From Candidatus Berkelbacteria bacterium Licking1014_7 (GTDB lineage: Bacteria; Patescibacteriota; UBA1384; GWA2-35-9; CG2-30-39-44): DNA of 64,000 nucleotides. Under the pieces are notes generated by a model. It worked only from the letters and a program-made list of their open reading frames with translations, searched no databases and had not been told where the DNA came from. The position numbers were made by a program, and so were the translations under genes. The stretch covers positions 2,085 through 66,084 of the forward strand of contig VMGK01000005.1 in assembly GCA_007376535.1 (NCBI GenBank), written 5' to 3'. Below are positions 16,067-56,096 of the stretch, piece after piece. The first letter of the stretch is position 1; every line of letters starts with the position of its first letter.

Positions 16067-16074
16067 AGTTATTA

Positions 16075-18720: not shown

Positions 18721-18722
18721 AT

Positions 18723-26011: not shown

Positions 26012-26013
26012 AT

Positions 26014-27127: not shown

Positions 27128-27161
27128 GCGGTAAAAAGAAATACTTTTTCCGCTTTTTTTT
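27128..27161 (+). terminator. Hairpin plus T-run (GCGGTAAAAAG-AAATA-CTTTTTCCGC TTTTTTTT)
   Basis: 10-bp stem followed by eight T residues. Confidence 0.4.
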
Positions 27162-27226
27162 ATTTCAACAATTTCAACAATGTTTCGATGTGACGACTAA
27201 TTCCAGAATTTAGTGCAACTTTGGTT

Positions 27227-28030
27227 TTATTTTTTGATAAATTTCTGCGCAAGTTTGGCGATAACGGCGCTGGAATCATTTTTTTCAAAAGCGCGCAGGA
27301 TTTCGATCGGTATAGCAAAAATTACAGTGTTTGATTGATCTGACGAAAGATCGTTTAAGGTATTTAAAGTTCTAAGATGCAGGGCGCCGGTTGATGATGA
27401 CAATGTTTGCGCCGCCTTGGCTAAATTTTTTGAGGCGATCACTTCACCTTCTGCTTTGGTGATAACCGCGCGTTTTTCTCGTTCTGCCTCTGCTTGTTTG
27501 GCAATCACCCGTTGCATTTCTTGCGGAAGGGAAACATCTTTCAGGTCAACATTTTCCACAGTGATGCCCCAAGGATCAGTGAGTTTGTCAACAATGGTCT
27601 TAATCTGATTAGACACATCGTCGCGTTTGGAAAGCAAAGTGTCCAGATCAACTGAGCCAACAATATTTCGCATCGTGGTTTGGGCTATCTGCGAGATAGC
27701 GTAGTAAAAATTTTCCACTTCAAGTACAGCTTTCGACACATCAGCAACTTTGTAGTAAATGACCGCGTTGATTTTGACTGAAATATTATCGCGCGTGATG
27801 GCTTCTTGGTCTGGCACATCCACTGCTTTGACACGAATATCCACTTTGATTAGCGATTCAATGATTGGCAAAATTAGTCGCCAGCCCGGATTAATAATAT
27901 TGACAAATTTTCCCAGCCGAAATTTGACACCGCGTTCAAATTGGTTAATTTGGCGAATACTAACCAGGATTATGATTAAAATTACAATCGCTATAACTGA
28001 AAGGATGAGAGTGTCTAAAAAAAAGTTCAT
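27227..28030 (-). CDS. SPFH/band-7 (stomatin/prohibitin-like) membrane protein
   Basis: N-terminal TM then the characteristic RGVKFRLGKF...DLK..SLP and coiled-coil EAEREKRA region. Confidence 0.8.
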   Translation of the reverse strand: MNFFLDTLILSVIAIVILIIILVSIRQINQFERGVKFRLGKFVNIINPGWRLILPIIESLIKVDIRVKAVDVPDQEAITRDNISVKINAVIYYKVADVSKAVLEVENFYYAISQIAQTTMRNIVGSVDLDTLLSKRDDVSNQIKTIVDKLTDPWGITVENVDLKDVSLPQEMQRVIAKQAEAEREKRAVITKAEGEVIASKNLAKAAQTLSSSTGALHLRTLNTLNDLSSDQSNTVIFAIPIEILRAFEKNDSSAVIAKLAQKFIKK

Positions 28031-28155
28031 AATTTTTTTTGTTTATTTTTGTTTATTTATGATATTATACAAAGAAATTGAGAAAGATGTCAAGGGATCC
28101 AATTTTGTGATGATTTTTAGAGGACTTTGTGATATATTTGTGATATAATACAATT

Positions 28156-28461
28156 ATGCAGAAAGAAAAAAATAAATTTCCCAAATTCTTAAAACGATAT
28201 TTTTGGGACACGGATTTTTCATTGCTTGATAGGCAAAAAAACCAAAAATATATTATTGAGCGGATTTTGGATTGGGGCGATGAACAGGGTATTGAATGGT
28301 TGTTTCAGACCTATTCAAGCCAAGAAATTAAAGCGGTGGTATTAACATCGCGAGAATTATTTAAGAAAAGCATTAATTTTTGGGGAATCATTTTAGAGTT
28401 AGGAGAAAAATGGAGGAAAGAGGCATTAGCGAAAAGACAAAACAAAATTTGGAATTATTAG
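28156..28461 (+). CDS. Small hypothetical protein upstream of and overlapping the AbiEii-like gene (possible antitoxin partner)
   Basis: 101-aa ORF with a 52-nt overlap with the downstream gene. No recognisable domain. Confidence 0.35.
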   Translation: MQKEKNKFPKFLKRYFWDTDFSLLDRQKNQKYIIERILDWGDEQGIEWLFQTYSSQEIKAVVLTSRELFKKSINFWGIILELGEKWRKEALAKRQNKIWNY

Positions 28462-29051
28462 CCAAAACACATTTTATTGGACAATTTTATTTAGCCGGCG
28501 GAACGGCTTGCGGTTTGTATTTTGGGCACAGAATTTCTTATGATTTAGATTTTTTTTCCGAGCGAAAATTTAACGCGCAGAAAATCAGAGATGAGTTAGA
28601 AAAAATGGGCGAACTCAAAATAGACATTATTGACGAAAATACTTTTTTGGGTTTTTTGAATAAAGTAAAGATAAGTTTTTTTTATTATAAATATCCGCTG
28701 ATTGGCGAGACGCAGGTCTATAGAGGGGTGAGGATTGTTTCAAAAAAGGACTTGCAGGCAATGAAAATTGACGCTTTGCAGTCGCGCGGCACAAAAAGGG
28801 ACTTTATTGATTTGTATACGATTTTGCAAGCAGATAATTATTCTATAAAAAACGCATTAGATAATTTTAAGGAAAAATACCAAAAGGCAAATTATAATAT
28901 GGAGCATATTTTGATGAGTTTGGTATATTTTGAAGACGCGGATAGGGATAATCGTCTCAATATGTTGGTATCATACGACTGGGAAAAAATAAAAAATTAT
29001 TTTATTGAGGACGTTAAAGCATACGAAAAAAATAGATTAAAAATCGATTAA
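28410..29051 (+). CDS. AbiEii/AbiGii-family nucleotidyltransferase (DUF1814-like) toxin candidate
   Basis: LAGGTACGLYFGHRISYDLDFF resembles the GG(T/S)AL...R.S.DIDF motif of AbiEii toxins. AGGAG RBS 4 nt upstream. Confidence 0.5.
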   Translation: MEERGISEKTKQNLELLAKTHFIGQFYLAGGTACGLYFGHRISYDLDFFSERKFNAQKIRDELEKMGELKIDIIDENTFLGFLNKVKISFFYYKYPLIGETQVYRGVRIVSKKDLQAMKIDALQSRGTKRDFIDLYTILQADNYSIKNALDNFKEKYQKANYNMEHILMSLVYFEDADRDNRLNMLVSYDWEKIKNYFIEDVKAYEKNRLKID

Positions 29052-29092: not shown

Positions 29093-29290
29093 GAACCCAT
29101 TTCAAAAATCCATATATTGCACATCCATCGTCTGGCTGAATGGGCAGCTGCAACAGCAGATATTCTGGCTGCAAAGATTAGAATAATTCGTCAACAGAGC
29201 TTCTGGCTATGCTTCCTCATTATTCTAACTTTTCGCTCATAATCTCTACTGTTTCGCTCCTCAATCAACCAGACGATGGATGTGGGTTCT
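29093..29290 (+). mobile_element. Complete MITE copy (about 198 bp)
   Basis: Begins GAACCCATTTCAAA and ends GGATGTGGGTTC. Confidence 0.55.
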
Positions 29291-29424
29291 TTTATCTGCT
29301 ATTTTGGCTGCAAACAATTCAGAGCTCGTCAGTGTCCGCCAAGGCGGATGCCTTCTCGCTCTTCATTGTTTTCGCTCAAAATATCAAATAAAATTATCAA
29401 AAGAGAGTTTTATAATGGGTTCCT
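29291..29424 (+). mobile_element. Second, 5'-truncated MITE copy in tandem. Its 3' terminal repeat TTTTATAATGGGTTC contains the ATG of the downstream gene
   Basis: TTTTGGCTGCAAA ... TCCGCCAAGGCGGATGC ... TTTCGCTCAAA ... ATAATGGGTTC. Confidence 0.55.
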
Positions 29425-31862
29425 ACAATTCGTTTGAGAATTTTATTCATAAAATAAAAAGGCGAACTTATTTATCGTTATTTTTGTCGGTTTTGGTGGT
29501 GGTTGGTTTTGGCGCGGGATTGATTTTTTGGTCTAAAAATGTTTCACGCGGGGCGACTACTTTAAGTGGAACTATCAATGGCTTACGGACAATTAGCGGA
29601 GACGCGGTGATCAAGACCAACCAAACAGTCACTCACGATCAGGGAAATACTACCGGAGGAACAGGATTGGGAGTGAATGTGAGTGGCACTTTAACCTTGG
29701 AAGCCGGCGCCAAAATTGATGTGAGCGGGAAGGGATATAAGGGGGGATATATTTTTTTTAGCATGAATAATATAGGTGGTTATTATTATACAGCTTTATT
29801 TCCGGCTAAGGGAAGCAAGGATGGCAACGCTCCTCAACAGCAAAATCAAGCTGGTGCCGGCGGAGACTGGGAAAATGGCGGGGCAGGCGGCGGCACAGGA
29901 TATAGAACGGCAAATAGACTGGGCGTTGGCGGCGGCGGCGGCGGCGCGTTTGGCTATGGCTCAGGCGGAAAAACCAACCATTCTTCGGCAAGCCCTGGAT
30001 GTTATGGCGGCGGCGGCGCGGGCTGGAAAGGCAAGGGCGGGGCAGGCGTTTGTTCTGGATCGGCGGTTAACGGTGCAGTAAGCGCCAGCATAAATTTTTC
30101 TAATGACAGTTGGTATAATAACGAGATTCTTTTTGGCGCTGGCGGCGCCAGCGGATTTACCATTACGCAGGATAACTCGGAGGGTGATGGCGGCAACAGT
30201 GAATGCGTCAAAGGCGGCAATGGCGGAGGGGCGGTAAAAATAAAAGCCAAAAAATTAAAAATTGAATCCGGGGCAAGCATATCGGCGGCAGGAAAATCGG
30301 GCGGAAAAATGTGCGATCTGGCTTATAGAGTAAAGTGGTTAACTTTTGGACAATTTACTTTGGGAGCGGCTGGGGGAGGCGGAACAATTTATATTGAGGT
30401 TGACGAATTGGAATTGCCTAGCGGTAATGATTATAATTTTGATGTTTCAGGCGGCGATGGTTGGGGGGCGCTGAGCGGGTCGATGTGGGCATCTTCCGGA
30501 GCAGGAGGCGGAGGGATAGTTGTAATTAGAATCGCAGGGGGAGGAAAAATAAAAATCGGGAATAATTATGTAGATAACTTTGCGACGGTTTACGCCAGAG
30601 CAGATTCCAACAAAGGCATGCTTCGCAATATCATAAACGATGTTTATATTTTAACCCAGAAAATACCTGATAGTGCTTGGGGGGGAGACGGCAAAGAAAT
30701 TTTTGCCGGCAATCCGACCATTCCCGGTGGTTCCACCACCTGCGACACATCAAAAATTAAATTGACTGATCCGTCGTTTTCCAGCCAACCGGCGGCGAAT
30801 TCTCATTACCAGCGCGGTGATACTTTTTCCTATAAGGCGCAATATATTAGTCAAGACAGCGGTTCAAATTGTTCTGGCAAGTATCAATTATATTTCCAGA
30901 CCGCTTTATCAAATGATTTAGAATTTATTGGTGGCAGTAAATTGACTCCCGGAAATTTAGATCCAACAATAGGTGGCGGTTTATTTTCAACTCAACATTG
31001 GGAAGTAAATTCAGCCGGTTCTTACACTGGTGATATTAAGATAAAAATAAAAGATAATGCTTGCAATCAGGCAGGCGGCGGCGTTGAGAACAAAATTCAA
31101 ATTTATCAAAAATACGATAATGGTGTGCTGATGGCGCCATCATCAGGAAATCCAGTTTACTCTAATGCGAATATAATTGTTGATTGTCCGGGCGTGGCGA
31201 TTTCCGGCAATGTTGGCGCAAGCAGTATAACTACGCCCGATCTAAAAATTATCGGTAATTCAGTGGTGGCGATTACGGGTTCCTCGTCAGCCACGCTTGA
31301 TTCACAAGTAGTAAATTTATCTGGTTATACCCATTCAATCAATTTTTCCGACATAAATACAAATTTTGAAGCGCTAAAAACCCGGCGGGCAATTAAGCCG
31401 AATCCTTGGACAAATAATTTTAATTTGAATAAGTACAATAAACCCGAAGGTGGAGTGTGGAAAGAACATCCTACCCCTATGAATAGAACTTTTCTGCAAG
31501 GGTCGCGAGGCACGATATTTCATACTGGCGATTTGACAATAGATGGAATTTCTTGGCAAGGCGCGACGGCTGGTGTTTTGGGCATCGTGGTGAAAGATGG
31601 TAATGTGATGATCAAAGATTTAAATTTAAAAAATGTGGCGATTTACGCGTACGACACCGGTGGCGCGGAAGACGGAAAAATCACTTTTGGCACGGGCGCA
31701 ACGGACGAAACATTAGACATGACCGGTTCGTTTGTCGCTAAAAGCATTGAAATTAAAAGTAAGAAGGGTAATATTAAACATTCGGACGGATTAGATAAAA
31801 ATCCTCCGCCCGGATTTTCTAACTTGCAGTCGCAAATAAAAATTTTAGAAAAAGCGCGGTAG
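29415..31862 (+). CDS. Large glycine-rich secreted/surface protein (N-terminal signal anchor, predicted β-helix/adhesin-like)
   Basis: TM segment LSLFLSVLVVVGFGAGLIFW followed by long GGxGGxG tracts and NxxG repeats. Confidence 0.55.
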   Translation: MGSYNSFENFIHKIKRRTYLSLFLSVLVVVGFGAGLIFWSKNVSRGATTLSGTINGLRTISGDAVIKTNQTVTHDQGNTTGGTGLGVNVSGTLTLEAGAKIDVSGKGYKGGYIFFSMNNIGGYYYTALFPAKGSKDGNAPQQQNQAGAGGDWENGGAGGGTGYRTANRLGVGGGGGGAFGYGSGGKTNHSSASPGCYGGGGAGWKGKGGAGVCSGSAVNGAVSASINFSNDSWYNNEILFGAGGASGFTITQDNSEGDGGNSECVKGGNGGGAVKIKAKKLKIESGASISAAGKSGGKMCDLAYRVKWLTFGQFTLGAAGGGGTIYIEVDELELPSGNDYNFDVSGGDGWGALSGSMWASSGAGGGGIVVIRIAGGGKIKIGNNYVDNFATVYARADSNKGMLRNIINDVYILTQKIPDSAWGGDGKEIFAGNPTIPGGSTTCDTSKIKLTDPSFSSQPAANSHYQRGDTFSYKAQYISQDSGSNCSGKYQLYFQTALSNDLEFIGGSKLTPGNLDPTIGGGLFSTQHWEVNSAGSYTGDIKIKIKDNACNQAGGGVENKIQIYQKYDNGVLMAPSSGNPVYSNANIIVDCPGVAISGNVGASSITTPDLKIIGNSVVAITGSSSATLDSQVVNLSGYTHSINFSDINTNFEALKTRRAIKPNPWTNNFNLNKYNKPEGGVWKEHPTPMNRTFLQGSRGTIFHTGDLTIDGISWQGATAGVLGIVVKDGNVMIKDLNLKNVAIYAYDTGGAEDGKITFGTGATDETLDMTGSFVAKSIEIKSKKGNIKHSDGLDKNPPPGFSNLQSQIKILEKAR

Positions 31863-38815: not shown

Positions 38816-41341
38816 ATGAAAAAGATAAAGTTAGGCAAAATTAGAAAGTTCTTTTCGGAGTGGTCGCGCAAGAAAGCAATACTATTTGCGGGCGGTGTCG
38901 CGCTCATTATTCTGGCTGGCGCAGCCGGTTATGTGGTCTATAAGCAAAGGGCCGGCGCGGATGTGCTTAAGCAATTTGAAGATGCGAAAATAAATATTGA
39001 AGCCTCGGCTGATTATTTCCCGATATTTAATCCCCCAATAGTTTCCATAAAACCAAATGCTCCGGCTGAAGTTAACACTGATGTGTATATAAAAGGAGGT
39101 CAGAAGGTTGCCGACCTTAATGCGCTCACATTCTCATGGGAAGAAACTTCTGGCGCTGAATTGTTAACTGGAAAAGATTTTGGAAAAACCCTTGATATCA
39201 CCTCCACTGGCGATGGAAAAATAAAAATTTCAGTCAAAGATTCGCTTAAAAACAGCATTAAGGGAAGAATATACACCTTTATTAAAGTAACAATCGCCAA
39301 ATCAAACACAACGGCTAAAACCCAAATCACCGAATTGCCAGTTATTATCAATCCTACAACACCTGCCTGGAATCAATTTGAGATTACTGTCAGATCCAGT
39401 GACGGCGGCATCACCGCTTACAAGGCCTGGGATACTGACGGCAAATTAATTCCATTGAATAAGCCGCCGGTCACGAATGATTATGCTAATTCTAGCGTTG
39501 GGGGGTGGAGATACGCTGATTATTATATTCTCAGATATAAATTTTTTTCTCCTGAATATGGAGATATTATTACTCCGTTTACTGAAATAAGATACTGTTT
39601 CGGCTTTAATTGGTGTGGTCGACCATGGCAATTTTCTGATGGCGAAAATGGACTAACCACGACAATACCCGACTATGGTCACGCAATAAATAATAACTAC
39701 TTGAATGGAATATTTACTACACCAATGTCAGCTTTTATAGTAACCGGCTTCGGATCGTTTCAATCAGGCTATATATCAGGTGGATGGTACCCTATACTTC
39801 GTAAAACGATCAAAATAGCGCCTGATTCCATAGAGTGGACGGTAAATAGTGATAAAATAAAAATTGCCAAAGGAGATAAATCACCCATTGTTTATCTATA
39901 TAATCTTGTCTCCGATAAACCAGATGATTATAAAATTAAACTTAATGCCAAAATTGATATAGGCGGAAAAAAAATTCTTCTTCAATCATCTGATTTCAGA
40001 TACAGTGGTACCTATACCTCTTTCCAAATATTTTCTCCCTCCGCCGCATCTTCCACACCCACCACCACCCCCACCACCAGCACCGTCACTTCGGCTGAAG
40101 AAATCAAAGCCCGCGACACCCAAAGAAAAGCTGACATAACCTCTATCCAGCAAGCATTGGAAAAATATTATCAAGCCAAGGGAACTTATCCGGATGCCAC
40201 AGGAGCCGCAGCGCCCAATGGTTCGTGGACTAACAGCGCCGATGATAGTTGGGATAAATTGACTGACGAGTTGAAACCCTATTTGTCCAATCTTCCCGAA
40301 GATCCGTCCAATACCGCCAATACCAGCAATGCCAATTGGACCGGTGTAGGCGAAGGAGATGCCTATAGTTACTCATATTTTTCAAAAGGTAATGGCAAAG
40401 ATAGTACCTGCCAATGGTATATGTTGGTTTATAGAATGGAAGACAAAGCCAACTCAGCCGGCATAACAAAAGGAGCAACCGCTTGCGATGCTAAAAAATA
40501 TAATTATGTTGGCAAAGACAGTTCGGTTGTGACAGTTGGCAATATGATTAAAAAATCTACCTCCACCACCACAACTCCGACTACCACTCCAACTGCTACT
40601 CCTGATCCTAAAATAGACCAGCAACGTCTCAAAGACATAGAAACCATTAAATCAGCCCTTGAGAAATACAAAACCGCCAAAGGGAGTTATCCGAGTACAA
40701 AAGGAGCTTCAAAACCGAATGGCAGCTGGTCAAGCAGCAACGATGACAGCTGGGCAAAGTTGGAAAAAGAACTTAAGCCCTATCTTGCGGCTGGAGTATT
40801 GCCCAAAGACCCGGTCAATACCAGTGGCGGTTGGGCGTTTTGGGGCAACACCTACACATACAGCTATTTCTCCGAGGGTTACGGCAAATCGTCTTCCTGC
40901 CAATGGTATATGCTGGTTTATCGGCTTGACGACGTTAAACTCAAAACCAGTCCGGGAGTAAAAGCGTGCAGTGGAACAAATTTCCAATACGGCAATGGAG
41001 CGATTACCGAGGGCAAAGTTGTCAACATAACTTCAACGACCACCACTCCGACCGTTAAAATCAACCAGGCCAACTTAACTCAATATACAACAGGAACATG
41101 GATTAGAAAAACCTATTACAAACTTGAAGCCAAGTGGACTGGCAGTGATAAAGAAGATGGAACCAATCTGACTTACCGCTATAAAGTAGATAATGGCAAA
41201 TGGAGCGCTTGGTCAAAAACCACATCTGCCACTATTAAAGCACTGAATGGCGTCAAACACTCTCTTACCGTAGAAGTCAAAGACAGCCAAGGGGCTGTCG
41301 GACAGGCAACTGCTTCCGCTTCATCTAAGGATTTTGACTAA
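38816..41341 (+). CDS. Large (841 aa) membrane-anchored protein with two tandem pilin/pseudopilin-like globular domains and Thr/Pro linkers
   Basis: Two repeats of RKADITSIQQALEKYYQAKGTYP ... CQWYMLVYR, matching the post-helix region of the pilA gene here. No prepilin leader. Confidence 0.6.
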   Translation: MKKIKLGKIRKFFSEWSRKKAILFAGGVALIILAGAAGYVVYKQRAGADVLKQFEDAKINIEASADYFPIFNPPIVSIKPNAPAEVNTDVYIKGGQKVADLNALTFSWEETSGAELLTGKDFGKTLDITSTGDGKIKISVKDSLKNSIKGRIYTFIKVTIAKSNTTAKTQITELPVIINPTTPAWNQFEITVRSSDGGITAYKAWDTDGKLIPLNKPPVTNDYANSSVGGWRYADYYILRYKFFSPEYGDIITPFTEIRYCFGFNWCGRPWQFSDGENGLTTTIPDYGHAINNNYLNGIFTTPMSAFIVTGFGSFQSGYISGGWYPILRKTIKIAPDSIEWTVNSDKIKIAKGDKSPIVYLYNLVSDKPDDYKIKLNAKIDIGGKKILLQSSDFRYSGTYTSFQIFSPSAASSTPTTTPTTSTVTSAEEIKARDTQRKADITSIQQALEKYYQAKGTYPDATGAAAPNGSWTNSADDSWDKLTDELKPYLSNLPEDPSNTANTSNANWTGVGEGDAYSYSYFSKGNGKDSTCQWYMLVYRMEDKANSAGITKGATACDAKKYNYVGKDSSVVTVGNMIKKSTSTTTTPTTTPTATPDPKIDQQRLKDIETIKSALEKYKTAKGSYPSTKGASKPNGSWSSSNDDSWAKLEKELKPYLAAGVLPKDPVNTSGGWAFWGNTYTYSYFSEGYGKSSSCQWYMLVYRLDDVKLKTSPGVKACSGTNFQYGNGAITEGKVVNITSTTTTPTVKINQANLTQYTTGTWIRKTYYKLEAKWTGSDKEDGTNLTYRYKVDNGKWSAWSKTTSATIKALNGVKHSLTVEVKDSQGAVGQATASASSKDFD

Positions 41342-45149: not shown

Positions 45150-45300
45150 TTTTTCGTAGCGAAACGCAGTAATTTTGAGCGAAAATTGTGAAGAACGAGG
45201 AAAGGTATATGGAATATCCATTGACGAGTTATGAACAATTTGCAGCCAAAATTACAAGTTGTAGTAGAAAAGGTTATTGTGGAAGAAGTCTAACAAAAAA
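45150..45300 (-). mobile_element. Degenerate inverted MITE copy downstream of the pilus operon
   Basis: TTTGCAGCCAAAATTACAAGTTGTAGTAG and GCGAAAATTGTGAAGAACGAGGAAAG match the MITE core in reverse. Confidence 0.4.
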
Positions 45301-45469
45301 TAATCCGTAGACAGCAAGCGAGGTTCAGATTTCTGATTTTGGAAGAAGTCTAGTAAGTCTTGCCGAGGAAATATTGTTAAATTGTTTTTAACCTTGAATT
45401 TCGTAATTCAAGGTATTTAATCAATATTTACCAACTGCGGAAACCGCAGTTTTTTAAAACGGGAACAAT

Positions 45470-48088: not shown

Positions 48089-48354
48089 TCAGAATTGTTA
48101 TTGCGAACAGATTCATCTTAATGTCATTTATGTTTAGTATATATTAAGTTTTTATGTGGATTGTGGCGTCTATTCGTCTAACTGATTAAAATTAAAATCT
48201 TTAACATTTTAGTGCGATCGCATCAGTTTGTTAAAGATTCCAATAAATTTAATTGAGGAATAGCGCGCAAAAAAATAGCATGCCTTGACATTTGTCAGGG
48301 TTTTATAGTATATTGTTGATGATTTAATAAAAGCACATTGACAAGGAGGTAGAC

Positions 48355-48579
48355 GTGATGGATGTGGAGGTGCCGAAAGAGACAATTAGCACGTTATGTA
48401 GAACGATAGCCGAGTTATTTCAGAAGAATAGGGAATTGAATCTTAGTTTGAGGCGAGAAAAAGCCGAAAAGCAAGTGCTACGAGAGCAACTGTGGGCGAA
48501 GAAAATAGAAACTGGCCAAGACGAACTTTTGGAATATTTGGCAAAACAGATTGACAAGGAGGAAGGACGCGATGGGTAG
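48355..48579 (+). CDS. Small coiled-coil hypothetical protein
   Basis: Heptad-rich ORF in a compositionally distinct segment. Weak evidence only. Confidence 0.3.
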   Translation: MMDVEVPKETISTLCRTIAELFQKNRELNLSLRREKAEKQVLREQLWAKKIETGQDELLEYLAKQIDKEEGRDG

Positions 48580-48808
48580 AGAGGAAGAGCCATATAAAAC
48601 AATTGATGAGTTGCTTAATGATATTAGTGAGTTGAAATCGAGTTTAAAACGAGTAACAACCGAAAAACGAGCATCGGAAAAATCGTTGCTATCGGCGCAA
48701 GCAAGAATTATAGAATTGGAAGAGCAATTGCAAAAAACGCAGGCAATAATTGGTGCCCGTGAAAGAAAATCCAAGAAAGTACTAAATGAACTTAAGGTAG
48801 CACTCTAG
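48551..48808 (+). CDS. Small coiled-coil hypothetical protein
   Basis: Overlaps the upstream ORF. Heptad-rich. Confidence 0.3.
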   Translation: MTRRKDAMGREEEPYKTIDELLNDISELKSSLKRVTTEKRASEKSLLSAQARIIELEEQLQKTQAIIGARERKSKKVLNELKVAL

Positions 48809-49417
48809 ATAACATGAGAGGATGGACTAACCGAATCTGAGGTAGTAGACAACCTTATAGAGATTTTAACAGGAAAAGAGGAAGAAGAAAGAGTGATAGC
48901 AAGAATACCGGAACCTGCAGCAGAAGCGCTAATTGAAGATTTAGGTTTGCCAGATGGAGGTCTGAAATGACATTAAAAGCAGTCCGGGCAGATGAAATCA
49001 CCAGGCCCAAAAAGCCAAAATCCGAAAAACCGCTAACTTGCTGAGAGGTAGAACATACTTTATATTATGATTTGACCATTGAGGATTGTGATAATGTAGG
49101 GTTGCATCAGCATTTATCCAGATGTCCAGGTTGTTTGAAAATGTTGCTTCAATTGCGGGCGGACAGATTACTACATCGCGGGAGAGTAGAAAAACCTGAA
49201 TACGTTTGATCGTTATTTCAATAGCAGTTATTTCGTGGGGCGGGAGCGTTCAAAGACGTCTCGCCTTTTTTTATATTGTGAATGAGTGTGGTATAATGTA
49301 ATTAAATCAAAAGTCAAAAGTCAAAAATTAAAAATCAAAATGGCCCCGAACAATCCCGGCGGTAGCGGGATATACGGGGCAGGCAAATTTCAAAATGTAA
49401 AAAATGTAAAAAAAATT

Positions 49418-49846
49418 ATGGCGCAAGCAATATTAGATAAATCAGGGGGTAAAGAGAGTAAAGACGGCGCAAATTCAGTAACAGAACGGGAAAATGTAAC
49501 CGGTGCAACCGACGCGCAAGGTGAAAAAATAACCACAGCAACAGAAGCGAATTTATCGCAAACAGAAACAATAGTAGATAAAGATGTGACAGAAACACCA
49601 GTAATCGCTGGAAAAACCGAAACCGCGTCAGCGCCTGACGCAACAGTTGAAGTGGGCAATTTGCCAGAAGCGCCAAGCCAAAGCCAACCCGGCGCAGAAG
49701 AAAAAGTGATATTGACAGATACAACGGTCTATCCGGGTAGTAAGGAAAATTTAGCGGATGCTCATATTGCAGATGATTTTGTAAAAAGATTGTTAGCATT
49801 AAAAGAAGCCAACGAAAATCAAGGAGATGGGACAGAACAAGTTTAA
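49418..49846 (+). CDS. Acidic Thr/Glu-rich low-complexity protein preceding the first VirD4-like ATPase
   Basis: ORF-track start at 49286 runs through AT-rich tandem repeats and a REP hairpin. First plausible ATG is at 49418. Confidence 0.35.
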   Translation: MAQAILDKSGGKESKDGANSVTERENVTGATDAQGEKITTATEANLSQTETIVDKDVTETPVIAGKTETASAPDATVEVGNLPEAPSQSQPGAEEKVILTDTTVYPGSKENLADAHIADDFVKRLLALKEANENQGDGTEQV

Positions 49847-49980
49847 TCTCAAATCTCAAAATTCAAAATGACAATGTAAAATTCAAAATGATTTTGCATT
49901 TTGGATTATATTAAGCGATTTTTTCCCGCACTGCGATACGGGCGGGAATGCCAAGGCGGGGGAGTGTTAACAAAATTAAG

Positions 49981-52461
49981 ATGATTTTTATAATAATTTT
50001 CGGGATATTGATCTTGGTCTTTGGTATAGGACTGATAATTTTTAGTTTGCAAAAAGAAGCGGCGCGCAAAAAACGGATTTTATCAACAGTTACTTTGCAA
50101 ATTACTGTTCCCAAAGAATCAACCCGCCGCGACGATCAAGACACTAGCAACGAACCAAAGGATTTTCGCGAGGCGATCGCGCCGACCGATCAATTTTTTT
50201 CTTCGCTTTCCTCGCTTTTTAACCGCGACTTTCGCCGCCAAATACTATCTGATCAAGATTATTTATCATTTGAAATTGTCTCGTATAAAAATGAAATTTC
50301 TTTTTACATTGCCTGCCCTAAGGATTTGATGAGTTTGGTTGAAAAACAGGTCAATTCGTATTATCCTTATGCTAATATTGAGCGGGTGCGCGGTCATAAT
50401 ATTTTTGCCATTGGCAATGGCAAGGTTTCAGCCAGTAACATTAAACTAGTCAAAAGATTTATTTTCCCAATAAAAACCTATCGCTATTTGGATTCTGATC
50501 CATTGAACAATTTGACTAACGCGCTTTCTAAAATGGGACAAAACGCGTCCGGCGCAATTCAGTTTTTGATTAAACCGATTTCAAATAACTGGCGGATGGC
50601 GCCAACGTCTGCCGCCAAGCAAGTGATGGAAGGAAAAAATACTTATATGTATTCAAAATGGTGGCAAAAGGCGCTGAGTAATTTTTGGGAAGGAACTTCA
50701 AAAAGCGCTTCGCGCGCCGCCACACTGCCCGGTCAAACCATGCAAACCGACAGCCAAGGCAATCAGATGTATCGCCACACCCCGGCGCAGGAAGAATTGA
50801 TGAAAGCGTTTAATGAAAAAGCCGCTAAGCCCGGTTTTGCGGTTGAAGCGCGGGTGGTGGCAGTTGCGCAGGATGAACAATCTGTTAAAATGCTTAAAAA
50901 TAATATTGTGAGCGCCTTTGCTCAATTTAACGCGCCGGCGTGGAATAGTTTCAGAACCTCTTCGGCTGAGCAAAAGCAAATTATTTTGGACTATATTACT
51001 CGTAATTTTAATAAGGGAAATGTGCTCAATTCTGAGGAGGTGGCGTCGCTTTGGCATTTGCCAAATAAATTTATCCAGACGCCGAATATCAAATGGTTGC
51101 AATCGCGCACTTTGCCCGCGCCCACCAATTTGCCAGAACAGGGTGTAGTGATAGGAAAAAGCGTTTATCGCGGCGAGGAAAAGTTGATTCGTTTTAAGGA
51201 CGATGATCGACGCCGTCATTTGTTTATGATTGGTAAAACCGGTGTTGGTAAAACCACTTTATTTGAAAATATGATTATGCAAGACATTTCTCAGGGCAAA
51301 GGGGTTTGTTTTGTTGATCCATTGGGCGATGCGATTGAATCAATTCTGCAAAAAATTCCCACTCATCGCGCCCGCGATGTGATTGTTTTTGATCCGTCTG
51401 ACACTGATTATCCGCTGGGACTTAATTTGCTTAATTGGGAAAAACCAGAAGAAAAGGATTTTTTAGTGTCTGAATGGTTGGAAATTTTCTACAAACTTTT
51501 TGATCCGGGTCGCACTGGTATAGTGGGACCGCAGTTTGAGCATTGGGGGAGAAATGCCGCGCTTTCAGTTATGAGTTTGCCTGAAGGCGGGACTTTGATT
51601 GATATTCCCCGCATGTTCACTGATGATGATTTTCGGGACAGAGTGATTGCGAATGTAAAAGATCCGGTCGTTCTGGCTTTCTGGCAAAAGCAATTAGTGA
51701 AAACCGCTGATTTTCATAAGTCAGAAATGTTTAATTATTTTATTTCTAAATTTGGACGGTTTATGACCAATGATTTGATGCGTAATATTATCGGTCAGGC
51801 GCGATCTACGTTTAATTTTCGACAGGTGATGGATGAGGGGAAGATTTTACTGATTAATTTGTCAAAGGGAAAAATCGGCGAGATGAATTCCAATCTTTTA
51901 GGTATGATTTTAGTGTCAAAAATTCAGGCGGGGGCATTCTCGCGCGCAGACATTAGCGAAGAAAACCGACGGGATTTTTACCTTTATGTTGACGAGTTTC
52001 AAAATTTTACCACTGATACATTTGCGACAATTTTGTCTGAAGCCAGAAAATACCGCTTAAATTTGAATATTACCAATCAGTACATTGCTCAATTAACAGA
52101 GAAAATTCGCGACGCGGTGATTGGCAATGCCGGCACATTGGTGGTCTATCGGATTGGCGCGGCTGACGGTGAATTTATGTCAAAAGAATTTCCCGGGGCA
52201 ACGATTGACGATATGGTTAATTTAGATAGATTTAAGACATATGTTAAATTGTTGATTGATTTGACGCCTTCAAAACCGTTTTCTATGCTGGGCATAAAAA
52301 CGAATTATCCTTCAAATCCACAAATGTCAGAGTGGATAAAACAGAATAGCCGGGCGCTTCACAGCCGGGCAAAGACGCAAGTTGAAAAAGAAATCGGCGG
52401 ACGCGGCGGCTTGACTGCGCCGCCGGCGCCCGAGCCAACCGAGGCGCTTCGCCAAACGTAG
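49981..52461 (+). CDS. Membrane-anchored VirD4/TraG-like (type IV coupling-protein-like, FtsK/HerA superfamily) P-loop ATPase, paralog 1
   Basis: N-terminal TM; Walker A FMIGKTGVGKTT; Walker B FYLYVDEFQNF; ARKYRLNL and TNQYIAQL (Arg-finger and sensor-like). Start could also be 49948. Confidence 0.65.
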   Translation: MIFIIIFGILILVFGIGLIIFSLQKEAARKKRILSTVTLQITVPKESTRRDDQDTSNEPKDFREAIAPTDQFFSSLSSLFNRDFRRQILSDQDYLSFEIVSYKNEISFYIACPKDLMSLVEKQVNSYYPYANIERVRGHNIFAIGNGKVSASNIKLVKRFIFPIKTYRYLDSDPLNNLTNALSKMGQNASGAIQFLIKPISNNWRMAPTSAAKQVMEGKNTYMYSKWWQKALSNFWEGTSKSASRAATLPGQTMQTDSQGNQMYRHTPAQEELMKAFNEKAAKPGFAVEARVVAVAQDEQSVKMLKNNIVSAFAQFNAPAWNSFRTSSAEQKQIILDYITRNFNKGNVLNSEEVASLWHLPNKFIQTPNIKWLQSRTLPAPTNLPEQGVVIGKSVYRGEEKLIRFKDDDRRRHLFMIGKTGVGKTTLFENMIMQDISQGKGVCFVDPLGDAIESILQKIPTHRARDVIVFDPSDTDYPLGLNLLNWEKPEEKDFLVSEWLEIFYKLFDPGRTGIVGPQFEHWGRNAALSVMSLPEGGTLIDIPRMFTDDDFRDRVIANVKDPVVLAFWQKQLVKTADFHKSEMFNYFISKFGRFMTNDLMRNIIGQARSTFNFRQVMDEGKILLINLSKGKIGEMNSNLLGMILVSKIQAGAFSRADISEENRRDFYLYVDEFQNFTTDTFATILSEARKYRLNLNITNQYIAQLTEKIRDAVIGNAGTLVVYRIGAADGEFMSKEFPGATIDDMVNLDRFKTYVKLLIDLTPSKPFSMLGIKTNYPSNPQMSEWIKQNSRALHSRAKTQVEKEIGGRGGLTAPPAPEPTEALRQT

Positions 52462-52641
52462 ATAAATCAAATATCAAAAATTAAAAATCAAAATGACATA
52501 TCAAAAATTAAAAATATTTTTACATTTTAATATTTGTTTTTGATATTTGATATTTGATATTTGATTTATTAATAATAGGGAAAATAATTTCCACCATTGT
52601 TGATTAAAAATAATACAACAAAAACCTAAAATAATAATTTT

Positions 52642-53169
52642 ATGAAAAGTTTAGACGAAAAAGAACAAAAGTTGGCGCAAGAGTTTGAAAAAATGTTTTC
52701 TCATTTGGACTGCGCCATCTCGGCATTATCTGATTTGAAATCCGAGCTTTTTGAAATATACCAAAGTGAATTTTCTGTTCCGTCGGGCGCTAAACCAATT
52801 GATCAAAAAAATTTTATCGGTGTTTTTGACGGCAGATGCTTGAAGAGCGCGGATAAATTATTTCCGGTGCCAGAAAATTATATTTCAAAATCAAAAATTG
52901 TTGAGGGCGATAAATTAAAACTTACAATTGAGGCAGACGGAAGTTTTATTTTCAAACAGATTGACAGAGTAGAAAGAAAGAAACAAATAGGAAAAATTAT
53001 CGAAATTTCTGGAAAATATATGGCGCAAGTTAAAAAACGGCTTTATAAGGTTTTGCCTGCTGGCGTAAAATTTCATAAACCGTTGGTTGGCGATTTTGTG
53101 ACCATTGTTTTGCCGCGCGAGGGCGAAGCCAAGTGGGCGGTGATTGAAAATAAAATCGATAAAAATTAA
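52642..53169 (+). CDS. Hypothetical protein immediately upstream of the second ATPase (3-nt spacing)
   Basis: 175-aa ORF with the stop 2 nt before the next start. Possible OB-fold-like C-terminus. No confident family. Confidence 0.45.
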   Translation: MKSLDEKEQKLAQEFEKMFSHLDCAISALSDLKSELFEIYQSEFSVPSGAKPIDQKNFIGVFDGRCLKSADKLFPVPENYISKSKIVEGDKLKLTIEADGSFIFKQIDRVERKKQIGKIIEISGKYMAQVKKRLYKVLPAGVKFHKPLVGDFVTIVLPREGEAKWAVIENKIDKN

Positions 53170-53171
53170 AT

Positions 53172-56096
53172 ATGTTAGCCATAATAATTTTATTGGGTTG
53201 CATTTTGCTGGCGATAATCATCGGGATAATTTTGCTGATTATAAGAATGCAAAAAGAGGAGAATAATCTGGAAAATTTTGTTGACGAGCAATATGTTTTA
53301 CTCGAGATTCTGGTGCCCAGAAATAATGAAAAAGGACCTCCTCACTCTGAAAGTATGTTTGCCGCCTTGCATGGAATTTTTGATCCCGGCAAGAATTATC
53401 AAGATCATATTAGTTTTGAAATTACCTCAAAAAATAAATATATTTTATTTTATTGTTGGGCGCCAGAACGACTAAAGGACTTTGTTGAAGGGCAGATTTA
53501 CGCGCAGTATCCCACAGTTGAAATTCGCGAGGCGCCAGAGGATTATTCGCTAAATTTAAATGCTAACTTAAAATTTGCCGGCACTACTTTAGAGTTAAAT
53601 AAAAGTGATGTTTTCCCGATAAAAACCTTTCCCAATTTTGAAGTTGATCCGCTGGCGTCGATTACCAGTGTTTTGTCAAAGGTCTCTGGCGATCAGCAGG
53701 TTTGGATTCAACTATTGGTCCGTCCGGTTTCAGATGATTGGCGACAAAAGGGCATTAGTTATGTGCGAGCGATAAAAGCCGGAGAAAGTGTTGAAAAACC
53801 ATCGCTTTCTTCACGGATTATCTTGGGGGCGTTTGATTTTACTAAGGAAGTGGTTAAAACCGCTACTACTGTGACTCCCCAAGAATCAGGAGCAGGGGAG
53901 AGTGAGCCGCCCAAACTTTCCGGACCTGAGGAAGAAGCGCTGAGCGCCATTGAGCAAAAGGTGGTTAAACTTGGTTTTGAAGCAAAAATCAGAATAGTTG
54001 CTTCGGCTGAAAACGAGGTGCAAGCGCGCAGTAAATTGCAAAATGCGGTCTCGGCGTTTAAGCAATTTAACGCGACTAACATTAATGGTTTTGTTGCCAA
54101 AGAGATTTTGACTAATCAGGATATTTTAGAAAAATATCAGCAAAGATCTTTTCAGAAAGATGGCTATATTTTAAATATTGAAGAATTGGCGTCAATTTTC
54201 CATTTGCCGCATATTACTGTGGAAACGCCGTCAATTGCTTGGGCAGGCGCTAAAAAGGGAGAGCCGCCCAGCAATTTGCCGATTGCGGGCACAGTTGACG
54301 ATATTGATTTGACTCTATTTGGCCGGACAAATTTTAGGCATTTTAATCAAAAATTTGGGATTAAATCGCGCGACCGGCGCTTGCACTTTTACGCGATTGG
54401 CAAAACCGGCACCGGAAAAACAACGATGTTGGAAAATATGATTATTGATGATATAGAAGAGGGGAGAGGGCTGGCGGTAGTGGATCCGCATGGAGATTTG
54501 ATTGAGCATATTTTAAATTTCATACCCGAAAAAAGAATCCAAGATGTGATATATTTTGCTCCGCACGATAGGCAATTTCCGATTGGATTTAATATTTTAG
54601 AGAAAGTTGATGATGATTTGAAATCAATTGTTGCTTCTGGCGTGGTCGGGGTTTTCAAAAAAATTTTTGGCGAGTCCTGGGGTCCCCGATTAGAGTATAT
54701 ACTAAGAAATACGGTTTTATCGCTTTTGGACTTGGATGATGCCACTATGCTGGGAATAACCCGGGTTTTGGTTGATAAGGCCTATCGAAAAAAAATGGTA
54801 GATAAAATCAAGGATCCGGTAATTAAGGATTTCTGGGTGAGTGAATATGAGCAATACGATGCAAAATTTCGCACTGAGGCAGTCGCGCCCATTCAAAATA
54901 AGGTTGGTCAGTTTTTGTCTACTTCTACCATTCGCAATATTGTTGGACAGTCAAAATCAACCATTGACATTCGTGAAATAATGGACAATAAGCGAATTTT
55001 TTTGATTGATTTGGCAGTCGGTAAAGTCGGGGAGGATGTGTCGTCTCTTCTTGGCGCGATGATGATTACAAAAATCCAGTTGGCTGCGATGCAAAGAGCC
55101 AATGTTCCAGAAGATGAGCGGATAGATTTTTATCTTTATGTGGACGAGTTTCAAAATTTTGCGACTGAAAGCTTTGCGACAATTTTATCCGAAGCGCGCA
55201 AATATCATTTGAATTTGATAATGACCAATCAATATATTGCCCAGATGCCAGAAGTGGTGCGCGACGCGGTTTTTGGCAACATTGGTTCTTTGGTGAGTTT
55301 TCGGGTTGGCGCAACTGACGCGGATTTTTTACAGAAAGAGTTTGAACCGGTTTTTGACGCTAATGATTTGGTAAATATGGATAATTATGATATCTATGTA
55401 AAAATGGCGATTGACGGTGTTACTTCAAATGCATTTTCAGCGCAGACCCTGCCGCCTAAAACCAAAAGATTTGGACACCGCGATCAAATTATTGATTTTT
55501 CACGCCATCGCTACAGCCAGAGTAGGGAAGAGATAGAGGAAAAAATTCAGCAATGGTCAAATGCGCTCGCTCAAGAAAATATTGAAACCCACAAAAAAGA
55601 TACGGTTATCGGGCAGGAAAGATCCGAAAAAATTAAGAACTTAGGGTATCGTAAAATTAAAAGTTTAACGGGAAATGATTGGTATGTTAGAGAAAATCAA
55701 AAATCAAAAATCAGAAATCAAATAGAAAATGTCAGTCAAGATAAAGCTCCATTTGCAAAAATCCCCGAAAGCTTGCGCCATCCGCCCCTGGCGGAAGCGG
55801 AGCAATACGGGGCAGGCACCCGATTAGATAACTTTGTATCTAACGGGGCAGGCAAAAATCAAATAGAATTAGAATCAAAATCTAAAGATGAGAGTAATCA
55901 TAGCAGTGATGATAGTAGTGCAACAGAATCAAAATATCAGGATGTTAGCCAAGATAAAAACGAGCCAGCCAAACCCAAAATTCCCCCCAGATATAGTATA
56001 TACTCTAAAAAACCAAAGAATTATGCGAAAGTTGACAAAAGTTTTTTTGATTTGAATAGGTTCAATAAAAAAGAGGATACTAAAAGTCGCCGGTGA
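53172..56096 (+). CDS. Membrane-anchored VirD4/TraG-like P-loop ATPase, paralog 2, with a C-terminal low-complexity tail
   Basis: N-terminal TM; Walker A FYAIGKTGTGKTT; Walker B FYLYVDEFQNF; ARKYHLNL and TNQYIAQM. Collinear with paralog 1 over about 750 aa. Confidence 0.65.
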   Translation: MLAIIILLGCILLAIIIGIILLIIRMQKEENNLENFVDEQYVLLEILVPRNNEKGPPHSESMFAALHGIFDPGKNYQDHISFEITSKNKYILFYCWAPERLKDFVEGQIYAQYPTVEIREAPEDYSLNLNANLKFAGTTLELNKSDVFPIKTFPNFEVDPLASITSVLSKVSGDQQVWIQLLVRPVSDDWRQKGISYVRAIKAGESVEKPSLSSRIILGAFDFTKEVVKTATTVTPQESGAGESEPPKLSGPEEEALSAIEQKVVKLGFEAKIRIVASAENEVQARSKLQNAVSAFKQFNATNINGFVAKEILTNQDILEKYQQRSFQKDGYILNIEELASIFHLPHITVETPSIAWAGAKKGEPPSNLPIAGTVDDIDLTLFGRTNFRHFNQKFGIKSRDRRLHFYAIGKTGTGKTTMLENMIIDDIEEGRGLAVVDPHGDLIEHILNFIPEKRIQDVIYFAPHDRQFPIGFNILEKVDDDLKSIVASGVVGVFKKIFGESWGPRLEYILRNTVLSLLDLDDATMLGITRVLVDKAYRKKMVDKIKDPVIKDFWVSEYEQYDAKFRTEAVAPIQNKVGQFLSTSTIRNIVGQSKSTIDIREIMDNKRIFLIDLAVGKVGEDVSSLLGAMMITKIQLAAMQRANVPEDERIDFYLYVDEFQNFATESFATILSEARKYHLNLIMTNQYIAQMPEVVRDAVFGNIGSLVSFRVGATDADFLQKEFEPVFDANDLVNMDNYDIYVKMAIDGVTSNAFSAQTLPPKTKRFGHRDQIIDFSRHRYSQSREEIEEKIQQWSNALAQENIETHKKDTVIGQERSEKIKNLGYRKIKSLTGNDWYVRENQKSKIRNQIENVSQDKAPFAKIPESLRHPPLAEAEQYGAGTRLDNFVSNGAGKNQIELESKSKDESNHSSDDSSATESKYQDVSQDKNEPAKPKIPPRYSIYSKKPKNYAKVDKSFFDLNRFNKKEDTKSRR

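Follow-up and report, generated by a model that had tools for sequence, protein, structure and literature searches.

Genes A and B of Candidatus Berkelbacteria bacterium Licking1014_7 represent two ancient lineages of one family of ATPases, specific to the CPR (Patescibacteria) and some phages, which belongs to the VirB4/VirD4 branch of the FtsK-HerA superfamily and may well act in membrane-anchored DNA translocation; taken as a whole, this reading is given a probability of about one half. Pfam and a 2025 survey (PMC12102498) already list this family, and A and B therefore do not constitute a new system. The features of the locus, within the 64-kb stretch of DNA that was analysed (the window), are as follows.

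49270-49297, + strand: promoter-like site TTTATA-16 nt-TG-TATAAT, with 10 of 12 consensus matches plus the TG; a consensus match alone
49321-49342, + strand: 22-nt AT-rich element TCAAAAATTAAAAATCAAAATG, copy 1, ending in the ATG at 49340
49340-49846, + strand: acidic low-complexity ORF, 168 aa from the ATG at 49340 or 142 aa from the ATG at 49418
49948-52461, + strand: paralogue A, 837 aa (817 aa in the NCBI call), of the CPR-wide lineage; TM helix at about aa 12-34, DUF8128 at about aa 45-400 (50080-51147), T4CP-like ATPase at about aa 405-790
51232-51258, + strand: Walker A of A (aa 429-437)
51979-52008, + strand: Walker B of A (aa 678-687)
52462-52569, no strand assigned: AT-rich inverted repeat, perfect centre, with arms of 54 nt each at 52462-52515 and 52516-52569
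52474-52495: 22-nt element, copy 2, exact, within the inverted repeat (0.01 chance matches expected)
52642-53169, + strand: 175-aa partner ORF, ending 2 nt before the start of B
53172-56096, + strand: paralogue B, 974 aa; TM helix at aa 1-24, DUF8128 at about aa 31-380, T4CP-like ATPase at about aa 381-790
54399-54425, + strand: Walker A of B (aa 410-418)
55131-55160, + strand: Walker B of B (aa 654-663)
about 55542-56093, + strand: C-terminal tail of B, 184 aa, low-complexity, K/S/E/N-rich

The ATPase domain

A and B are 37% identical over 763 amino acids (BLASTP, E 3e-160). Walker A GKTG(V/T)GKTT and Walker B YLYVDEFQNF are present in both, as are EARKY(R/H)LNL, TNQYIAQ and FPIKT(Y/F), i.e. 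all motifs quoted in the first-pass annotation. Both proteins have one hydrophobic segment only, at the amino terminal end, and the portion that follows it is probably cytoplasmic. The two are 100% identical to Berkelbacteria proteins P0001 and P0135, which carry PF26449 (DUF8128) and PF10412 in precomputed matches; the layout of the DUF8128-T4CP-like family, a DUF8128 N-domain and then a TrwB_AAD_bind-type ATPase, is found, with a match over the full length. BLASTP, Pfam and hhalign together sustain the initial description of two large paralogues with an N-terminal TM segment, a common N-domain and an ATPase of the VirD4/TraG/TraD type.

The Pfam scores for TrwB_AAD_bind, T4SS-DNA_transf and TraG-D_C barely exceed their cut-offs: A reaches 26.8 bits with PF10412 (cut-off 20.5), 24.9 with PF02534 (20.1) and 24.1 with PF12696 (22), and B 34.1 bits with PF10412 over aa 399-708. 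NCBIfam models stay far under cut-off (TIGR03743 TraD, 58 bits vs 366; TIGR03754, 37.5 vs 648; NF045973, 30.5 vs 250), and the solved T4CPs are weakly similar in a PDB profile search (DotL, E 5e-4; TrwB, E 4e-3). By hhalign, with the R388 sequence NC_028464, the match to TrwB has 92% probability (E 5e-7) and spans 271 columns, probably with the all-alpha region among them. This alignment is continuous over TrwB residues 120-393, which we take to include the all-alpha domain, and in B profile positions 11-302 of PF10412 are covered. The match to TrwK reaches 1.6%, that to TrsE consists of 39 columns around Walker A, and neither Pfam nor NCBIfam gave a match to a VirB4-type ATPase (CagE_TrbE_VirB, AAA_10, TIGR VirB4 models). 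Structure prediction covered the N-domain, and the C-terminal half was judged by sequence alignment, according to which the ATPase domain is of the T4CP type and not of the VirB4 type.

Could A and B be FtsK/SpoIIIE-like translocases of the CPR, with a role in chromosome segregation or dimer resolution? They are membrane-anchored ATPases of the right superfamily, Microgenomates loci have an XerC/D-type integrase gene and a DivIC/FtsB gene one to three genes downstream, and in the window a DUF1290 gene lies downstream, DUF1290 being linked to cell division in Firmicutes. But there is no FtsK_SpoIIIE (PF01580) Pfam match at E<=0.1 and no gamma domain, the anchor is a single TM segment rather than multi-pass, the Xer and FtsB neighbours are lineage-specific and on the opposite strand, and TM7x has a separately annotated ftsK. 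Such a function is very unlikely.

A part for A and B in anti-phage defence, as the ATPases of a HerA- or MADS-like module, is hardly credible. Of this idea, raised in the first-pass annotation, a moderate match of the ATPase domain to PADLOC mad8 (55 and 52 bits) is what is left, next to weak HerA matches and the presence of restriction-modification, AbiEii and HNH genes elsewhere in the window. The mad8 score, however, is no better than that for TraD, and the MADS paper gives no domain description of mad8. The defence-like genes lie over 20 kb from A and B, no methylase or nuclease is linked and no mad or HerA-partner genes are adjacent. The ATPase genes themselves are near-universal and vertically inherited, in housekeeping contexts.

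The N-terminal domain

Pfam names PF26449 a domain of unknown function, and its precomputed matches include the N-domains of both A and B; a literature search turned up no paper naming DUF8128 or PF26449. What type of domain is this? The AF2 model of the N-domain has a pLDDT of 92, and with it the best 14 Foldseek matches are all TrwK, the VirB4 of R388 (PDB 7o42, 7o41, 8rtd), at E 1e-6 to 4e-5. On this predicted structure, DUF8128 has the fold of the VirB4 N-terminal domain. An hhalign search revealed no sequence link of DUF8128 to the VirB4 N-domain or to TrsD, at a sensitivity that is low because the targets were single sequences. The original label 'VirD4-like' suits the ATPase domain but is incomplete, as the N-domain carries a VirB4-like fold.

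The architecture differs from that of both known relatives. With T4CPs (TrwB of R388, TraD, VirD4, DotL), A and B share a homologous ATPase domain, probably with its all-alpha region, and a membrane anchor, and the long low-complexity tail of B resembles that of many T4CPs. T4CPs, however, have two N-terminal TM helices directly before the ATPase, whereas A and B have one helix followed by the soluble DUF8128, an extra cytoplasmic domain of about 350 aa that T4CPs lack; T4CPs also come with linked relaxase and/or mating-pair-formation genes, and A and B with neither. Compared with VirB4, the N-domain is without sequence similarity and the ATPase is T4CP-type by sequence. VirB4 pairs with VirB3, whereas A and B carry a TM helix of their own, and in the window they have no VirB3/VirB6/VirB8-type neighbours.

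Two old lineages

Did A and B arise from the tandem duplication of a module of small protein and ATPase, as was first proposed? This does not hold, as the small proteins are unrelated to each other (although the ORF before each ATPase is real) and A and B diverged anciently. Orthologues of A and of B are each 55-74% identical, vs 37% between A and B, and in the phylogeny B branches outside the entire CPR-wide A clade, which makes them two separate old lineages. In the survey of 80 loci, A stands alone within 10 kb in about 73 loci from other CPR lineages. The B-type elsewhere consists of two split genes behind a sigma70_r4/HARE-HTH gene (directly upstream in L002-4 and L085-L090), and this split ATPase shares 58% identity with the C-terminal domain of B, against 43% with that of A. 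The window has no HARE-HTH gene. This gene could also encode a housekeeping transcription factor whose synteny with the B-type is incidental.

A-type genes are found in housekeeping contexts in the 80 loci, from many CPR classes, with subclades that follow taxonomy; the homologue search of the representative library pertains to the best 150 matches listed. The A-type is a core, vertically inherited gene. In Berkelbacteria the A locus (TGT side) adjoins the B locus (SecDF side), an adjacency that resembles a tandem duplication without being one of recent date; recent duplication is ruled out by identity levels, tree and synteny survey.

Small partner proteins and non-coding elements

The acidic ORF upstream of A (27 D+E vs 12-16 K+R) has no match in Pfam, NCBIfam, PADLOC or PHROG and is not alignable in sequence even with its counterpart in the Berkelbacteria relative L081. 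Of 78 loci, 61 have an ORF of 60-280 aa on the same strand no more than 130 nt ahead of A, and these ORFs are rich in disorder, with a pI lower than that of other ORFs. By position, the acidic ORF corresponds to the small disordered protein that precedes A-type genes across the CPR. Its mechanically called GTG start at 49286 lies inside the promoter-like site and is unlikely to be the start.

The AT-rich inverted repeat between the two ATPase genes, seen in the initial reading, is real. It starts right after the stop codon of A, its arms are 83% complementary and it folds with -30.4 kcal/mol (z = -6.9). In L081 the repeat is missing, and the OB gene and the end of A overlap. Degenerate relatives of the 22-nt element are found at 49839-49895. 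An Rfam search of the locus gave no match except an L10 leader.

The 175-aa protein has a predicted structure consisting of an N-terminal helix of about 40 aa and two OB/cold-shock-like beta-barrels, and from this tandem OB-fold the protein is predicted to bind single-stranded nucleic acid. It does not fall into the curated SSB, CSD or S1 families (Pfam and NCBIfam at E<=0.1 yielded noise only), and no homologues were found in viral contigs. An AbrB/SpoVT-like fold, a guess from motifs, is ruled out by the OB barrels of the model. Nor is the protein a dedicated partner of B, since its gene follows A in loci that lack B (L007-L010, L014); the context survey ties it to A.

Genomic context

A Walker A scan of the window detected PilB and PilT as the only other P-loop ATPases, and Pfam gave no match to T4SS or relaxase families among the tested ORFs (at least 120 aa). 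A tblastn search with SPO1 gp27.3, added to these two, uncovered no hidden VirB4 or relaxase, in agreement with the first-pass annotation, which saw no VirB4, VirB6 or relaxase there. As far as tested, the ATPase genes have no linked relaxase, oriT or channel gene, either in the window or in the 80 loci. Two large ORFs of the window (13112-15430 and 29280-31862) are without any Pfam match.

The type IV pilus locus, large and about 4 kb from A and B, was correctly noted as adjacent, but the adjacency is not conserved: PilB, PilT and PilC are within 10 kb in 1 of 80 loci, and a functional tie to this locus is rejected on that ground. This bears on whether A and B power natural transformation or the scavenging of host DNA, where a motor would pull single-stranded DNA through ComEC after capture by the pilus, as do ComFA, archaeal Ced or Helicobacter pylori ComB, and the OB protein would coat the incoming strand. 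CPR bacteria are naturally competent via T4P and ComEC, an OB-fold partner would fit, and there are faint NCBIfam matches to CedB and CedD. These matches (E 0.007-0.03), however, are confined to the Walker A region, comEC and comF are not linked, and the phage homologues adjoin a relaxase, which suggests that an element exports or processes its own DNA. This role is improbable.

Phage relatives and the Patescibacteria survey

Full-length homologues are present in Bacillus phages, namely SPO1 gp27.4, phage G gp156 and 0305phi8-36 ORF201. The match to phrog_5156 has an E of 9e-100 for A (aa 63-816) and 2e-88 for B, that to gp156 3e-48, and the DUF8128 HMM matches gp156 at 6e-36 and gp27.4 at 4e-21. 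The phage genes lie beside a Replic_Relax/MobC-type relaxase gene, in a neighbourhood named the 'DNA translocation operon' (PMC3357382); proteins of this operon are the only full-length relatives of the CPR family. The homology of these 'coupling ATPases' to A and B includes DUF8128, at only 20-25% identity. There are differences: ORF201 has no TM helix (PMC3357382) whereas A and B have one, and the phage genes adjoin, besides the relaxase, an actin-like protein gene and in phage G also a VirB4-like ATPase gene, which the CPR genes do not. The phage gene is non-essential in the laboratory, as is that of S. epibionticum (PMC3357382; accessible text of PMC12102498).

By that same text, the survey (Quinonero-Coronel et al. 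2025, PMC12102498) counted 5,713 T4CP homologues in 2,918 of 3,035 genomes, about two per genome, and treats them as VirD4 homologues; these orphan homologues are the same family as A and B. For them it leaves open an exapted function. It lists 39 CPR relaxase genes near t4cp, MOBC being the commonest class. Its accessible text describes neither the N-domain nor the division into A and B, and is silent on the split genes, the partners and the phage relatives.

Could A and B instead be true coupling proteins, working with the relaxase-less, MPF-FATA-like T4SS on Patescibacteria chromosomes from genes at a distance from virB4? Their task would then be to bring protein effectors or DNA to this machine, with a separate set of substrates for each paralogue. 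The acidic protein and the C-terminal tail would provide interfaces for adaptors, as in DotL-IcmSW or TraD-TraM. This is possible but doubtful. The T4CP-type ATPase domain and the long low-complexity tail of B, as in many T4CPs, agree with it, and the VirB4-like N-domain could dock on the same VirB3/VirB8-type partners; T4CP genes are often far from virB4, and the CPR T4SS cluster, in the survey's accessible text, has no recognisable coupling protein. On the other hand, the figures given there show only 148 of the 5,713 homologues near virB4, and VirB4 itself in only 2,417 of the 3,035 genomes. The S. epibionticum homologue is non-essential in Tn-seq, whereas the T4SS is essential (PMC12102498, accessible text); any role would thus be conditional. 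In addition, no T4SS gene is found in the 64-kb window, and the phage homologues function where neither phage nor host has an obvious T4SS (PMC3357382).

Proposed mechanism and significance

In the favoured reading, that of membrane-anchored DNA translocases, A and B would assemble as rings beneath the membrane, like their relatives, and use ATP to thread nucleic acid to a channel in the membrane, with DNA as the most probable substrate. Docking would fall to the VirB4-like N-domain, and translocation would be largely independent of a linked T4SS or relaxase. Putative accessory subunits are the small acidic disordered protein before A across the CPR, a candidate from synteny; the tandem-OB protein behind A, which from its predicted fold may bind single-stranded nucleic acid; and, in other lineages, perhaps the sigma70_r4/HARE-HTH DNA-binding protein before B. 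The link to DNA was counted from the phage relaxase neighbours, the CPR MOBC relaxases near t4cp, the OB partner and the HARE-HTH gene. T4CPs move proteins too, which was counted against a DNA substrate.

A bolder and rather unlikely reading has the DUF8128 ATPases as a third, hitherto unrecognised branch of the VirB4/VirD4 radiation, forming a self-contained, T4SS-independent DNA translocation system universal in the CPR. This system would be common to the CPR and large Bacillus phages and have its own DNA-handling subunits in the tandem-OB protein, the sigma-r4/HARE-HTH protein and an acidic regulator. With a VirB4 N-domain kept on a VirD4-type motor, the family might represent a 'missing link' or an ancestral form. 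If true, DNA might be moved between epibiont and host, for example, or host DNA be scavenged.

CPR bacteria account for a large part of bacterial diversity; they spend their lives attached to other cells and exchange macromolecules with these hosts. About 96% of CPR genomes carry the family, with about two copies each, which is more genomes than have a T4SS (figures of PMC12102498). The DUF8128-T4CP architecture bears on the divergence of VirB4 and VirD4. With a VirB4-like N-domain, two ancient lineages, each with its own conserved partners predicted to bind nucleic acid, and phage relatives beside relaxases, the 'T4CP homologue' becomes a testable hypothesis with named components.

The locus and its surroundings

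The genes around A and B, the two paralogous membrane-anchored ATPases of the window, are housekeeping. The ORFs reported in the first-pass annotation (A, B, the 175-aa ORF and the acidic ORF) are present where it placed them.

The ATPase genes and their neighbours
~32-45 kb: type IV pilus locus
45287-45428: leader of ribosomal protein L10 (Rfam RF00557; its 46.6 bits exceed the gathering score), followed by the genes for L10 and L7/L12 and then by TGT
end at 49846: acidic low-complexity ORF
49948-52461: paralogue A, ORF of 837 aa
52462-52515 and 52516-52569: arms of an AT-rich inverted repeat
52642-53169: 175-aa ORF, 2 nt between its end and B
53172-56096: paralogue B, ORF of 974 aa
downstream of the modules, opposite strand: DUF1290, SecF, SecD, sugar nucleotidyltransferase

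A and B are 100% identical to CEN89_228 and CEN89_230, hypothetical proteins of Candidatus Berkelbacteria bacterium Licking1014_7 (CPR/Patescibacteria), the source of the window. For the 175-aa protein, the identical entry is CEN89_229. The proposed paralogy is borne out (37% identity over 763 residues, E 3e-160), the motifs quoted earlier all occur in both proteins, and each has one hydrophobic segment, at the N-terminus, and no second. The inverted repeat is also real: its arms are 83% complementary, with a folding energy of -30.4 kcal/mol (z -6.9). Besides A and B, the window has no P-loop ATPases other than PilB and PilT. Do A and B then represent a competence motor, as the pilus locus nearby might suggest? 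The pilus neighbourhood is not conserved, and this role is improbable.

Other features of the window

Several further features were observed in the window.

13112-15430 (-) and 29280-31862 (+): long ORFs of 772 and 860 aa, respectively, with no Pfam match; the 860-aa one, directly 5' of PilN and PilO, may be part of the pilus locus
15479-18795 and 25007-29051: patches of mobile/defence-like genes, comprising an HNH endonuclease and an N6/N4 DNA methylase (15479-16914), a Bro-N protein adjoining tRNA-Pro (17720-18562), another DNA methylase (25007-26011), an SPFH protein and an AbiEii toxin-like protein (28380-29051)
38816-41341: unusually large (841 aa) pilin-like protein encoded in the type IV pilus locus; it matches T2SSG and, weakly, ComP_DUS
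48285-49040: two or three short ORFs of coiled-coil type (48355-48579, 48551-48808), lying between TGT and the modules, with a strong promoter-like site nearby (48285-48314)

The same 24-nt stretch with AAGGAGG lies 5' of each of these two coiled-coil ORFs (48331-48354, 48544-48567), and their PHROG matches are weak and of coiled-coil type only.

Two old lineages

How did the pair arise? A tandem duplication of a module, a small protein plus a VirD4/TraG-like ATPase, had been proposed. A survey of one genome per GTDB species gave 80 loci from many CPR classes, spanning Saccharibacteria, Microgenomates groups, Gracilibacteria/Peregrinibacteria, Doudnabacteria, Kazan, Berkelbacteria and Staskawiczbacteria. 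In about 73 of the 80, no further copy accompanies the A-type gene within 10 kb; a B-type gene adjoins it only in loci L001-L006, and in L014 lies 8 kb upstream. Orthologues of each paralogue, separate for A and B, are found at 55-74% identity, and in a neighbour-joining tree the B clade falls outside the whole A clade, whose subclades track taxonomy. A recent tandem duplication is contradicted by these results. The original observation stands, and its interpretation was right in part. Berkelbacteria probably carry two old loci side by side.

In L081, a Berkelbacteria relative, the order is an acidic 179-aa protein, A, the 175-aa protein (overlapping the end of A), B and, further on, DUF1290-SecF-SecD. 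Linkage to SecDF is a property of the B-type, both in the window and in the split form described below, and linkage to TGT one of the A-type, in Berkelbacteria-like loci. Microgenomates loci (L015-L027 and others, clusters c1 and c3) have an XerC/D-type integrase on the opposite strand and a DivIC/FtsB gene near the A-type gene, one to three genes downstream in about 20 of them; this synteny is lineage-specific.

Domain architecture

The C-terminal halves of A and B match Pfam TrwB_AAD_bind, T4SS-DNA_transf and TraG-D_C just above the gathering cut-offs, and NCBIfam TraD models well below theirs. Aligned with TrwB of R388, a family profile gives 92% probability across 271 columns that run from Walker A to past Walker B, whereas its alignment with the VirB4 proteins TrwK and TrsE is confined to the Walker A region. 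Similarity to solved structures is weak at the sequence level (DotL 5e-4, TrwB 4e-3). Judged by these matches, the C-terminal halves are coupling-protein-like. Could they instead be FtsK-like segregation motors? Neither has an FtsK domain, and TM7x has an ftsK of its own, which makes such a role very unlikely. That they are defence ATPases is less probable still, as the match to mad8 is limited to the ATPase domain.

The N-terminal ~350 residues correspond to Pfam PF26449, named DUF8128, of which a literature search found no mention. Residues 45-400 of A were modelled from a 121-sequence alignment (pLDDT 92, pTM 0.88). With this model, the best 14 Foldseek matches, at E 1e-6 to 4e-5, are TrwK chains without exception; the first match after them is at 1.4e-2. 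From the sequence and Foldseek results together, the architecture is therefore a TM helix, a DUF8128 domain resembling the VirB4 N-domain and a VirD4/TrwB-like motor. Since the ATPase has to be on the cytoplasmic side and there is a single TM helix, A and B are probably cytoplasmic throughout past the anchor.

A split form of the B lineage

A DUF8128-only profile, run against a library of 1.84 billion proteins, found 5,156 cluster representatives. Among the best 149 of these matches, 16 are complete ~420-aa proteins that end exactly where DUF8128 ends. Their contigs share a conserved operon, adjoining SecF or EF-P, with a sigma70_r4 + HARE-HTH gene, a TM-DUF8128 gene (product ~420-425 aa, ending exactly at the ..P..LP motif) and an ATPase gene (product ~550-600 aa, with a C-terminal zf_Tbcl_2 zinc finger).

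Loci with the split form
L085: 1238-5264
L086
L087
L088
L089: 1-3977
L090: 2925-5387

The split ATPase belongs to the B lineage, because it shares 58% identity with the C-terminal domain of B and 43% with that of A. The same HARE-HTH gene immediately precedes B in L002-L004. Relatives that consist of the ATPase alone, with 38-62% identity to the split/B C-terminal domain, occur at ~10000-11300 on L091-L098, IMG/VR contigs labelled viral, where no ORF of at least 80 aa matches DUF8128. The contigs could belong to CPR phages or be CPR sequence that was misclassified; a third architecture is the other possibility.

Small partner proteins

A is preceded on its own strand by an ORF of 60-280 aa, no more than 130 nt away, in 61 of 78 loci. 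These ORFs have more disorder-promoting residues and a lower pI than size-matched ORFs (p 1e-10 to 1e-26, with controls that include spurious ORFs from a crude gene caller). Their sequences form lineage-specific clusters with only a short C-terminal helix in common, and the upstream acidic proteins could not be aligned even within Berkelbacteria. The acidic ORF of the window is the positional equivalent of those elsewhere. A 21-nt stretch, ACGGGGCAGGCAAA..TCAAA, recurs at 90% identity in the 5' part of the acidic gene (49374-49394) and in the region coding for the C-terminal tail of B (55843-55863); both encode a GAGK-type motif, which may be chance.

The 175-aa protein has 14 detectable homologues and is predicted, from its two modelled OB barrels, to bind single-stranded nucleic acid. 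In L002-4, L007-10, L014 and L081 it follows A. Its pairing with B holds in the Berkelbacteria lineage of the window only; the protein travels with A, since A precedes it also where no B follows (L007-10, L014).

Regulatory elements

A promoter-like site is found at 49270-49297, which makes GTG 49286, a mechanical call, unlikely as the start of the acidic ORF. The 22-nt AT-rich element TCAAAAATTAAAAATCAAAATG has two exact copies (chance expectation 0.01), one immediately 5' of the acidic gene (49321-49342) and one in the left arm of the hairpin (52474-52495), with degenerate copies at 49839-49895, between the acidic gene and A. The copies may represent an operator or leader that the two sites share, or a 5' region that was duplicated. 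The 180-nt spacer that bears the hairpin is absent in L081. Together, the promoter-like site, the element copies and the spacer suggest two transcription units in Licking1014_7, one with the acidic gene and A and one with the OB gene and B, which may be under common control.

Relatives in phages

PHROGs family 5156, of unknown function, matches A (E 9e-100) and B (2e-88) over the full length. By tblastn, 44 phage records contain homologues, and 40 of these records are from Bacillus phages; examples of the homologues are gp156 of phage G (25% identity across 83% of A, E 3e-48), SPO1 gp27.4, and proteins of SP-10 and 0305phi8-36 (ORF201). A DUF8128 HMM built here finds gp156 at 6e-36 and gp27.4 at 4e-21. 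In SPO1 (L101 2797-8307), gp27.4 is flanked by an actin-like partition (ALP) protein and gp27.3 of the Replic_Relax family; in phage G (L102 2243-6385), a VirB4-like P-loop_TraG ATPase precedes gp156. The GenBank note on gp156, 'ATP-binding/permase; MsbA-like', looks wrong. Pathria et al. (2012, PMC3357382) named a 'DNA translocation operon' in 0305phi8-36, dispensable in the laboratory, with a MobC-type relaxase (ORF200), a coupling ATPase (ORF201), a VirB6-like protein (ORF203) and an MreB-like protein (ORF207). ORF201 is without a TM helix (PMC3357382), whereas A and B have one N-terminal segment each.

Function and significance

What do these ATPases do? Family membership, architecture, intact catalytic motifs, old paralogy and conserved partner positions are direct results of the analysis. 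The reading of A and B as a DNA translocase largely independent of a linked T4SS is given a probability of about one half. A and B would form membrane-tethered rings, as T4CPs and VirB4 do, and pump a nucleic-acid substrate. The VirB4 N-domain contacts VirB3 and VirB8 in the R388 structure; by analogy, DUF8128 might be a docking module. The OB and HARE-HTH proteins would handle DNA, and the acidic protein may be a regulator or adaptor.

A 2025 survey (Quinonero-Coronel et al. 2025, PMC12102498) counts 5,713 'T4CP homologues', spread over 2,918 of 3,035 Patescibacteria genomes; just 148 lie near virB4, and VirB4 is found in only 2,417 genomes. It gives MOBC as the commonest class of CPR relaxases, with 39 relaxase genes near t4cp. 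Old A and B loci side by side fit the T4CP-homologue counts. A and B might alternatively be the distally encoded coupling protein of a CPR T4SS, but the family is distributed more widely than VirB4 and, where the T4SS is essential, the gene is not; this alternative is unlikely, though not negligible.

The DUF8128 ATPase family is already catalogued (Pfam DUF8128; PMC12102498; PMC3357382) and is thus not a new system. Undescribed before, as far as was found, are a VirD4-like motor that carries a VirB4-like N-domain, the division into two ancient lineages, a split form included, the conserved partners with their predicted nucleic-acid binding, and the link that DUF8128 ATPases make between CPR bacteria and Bacillus phages.
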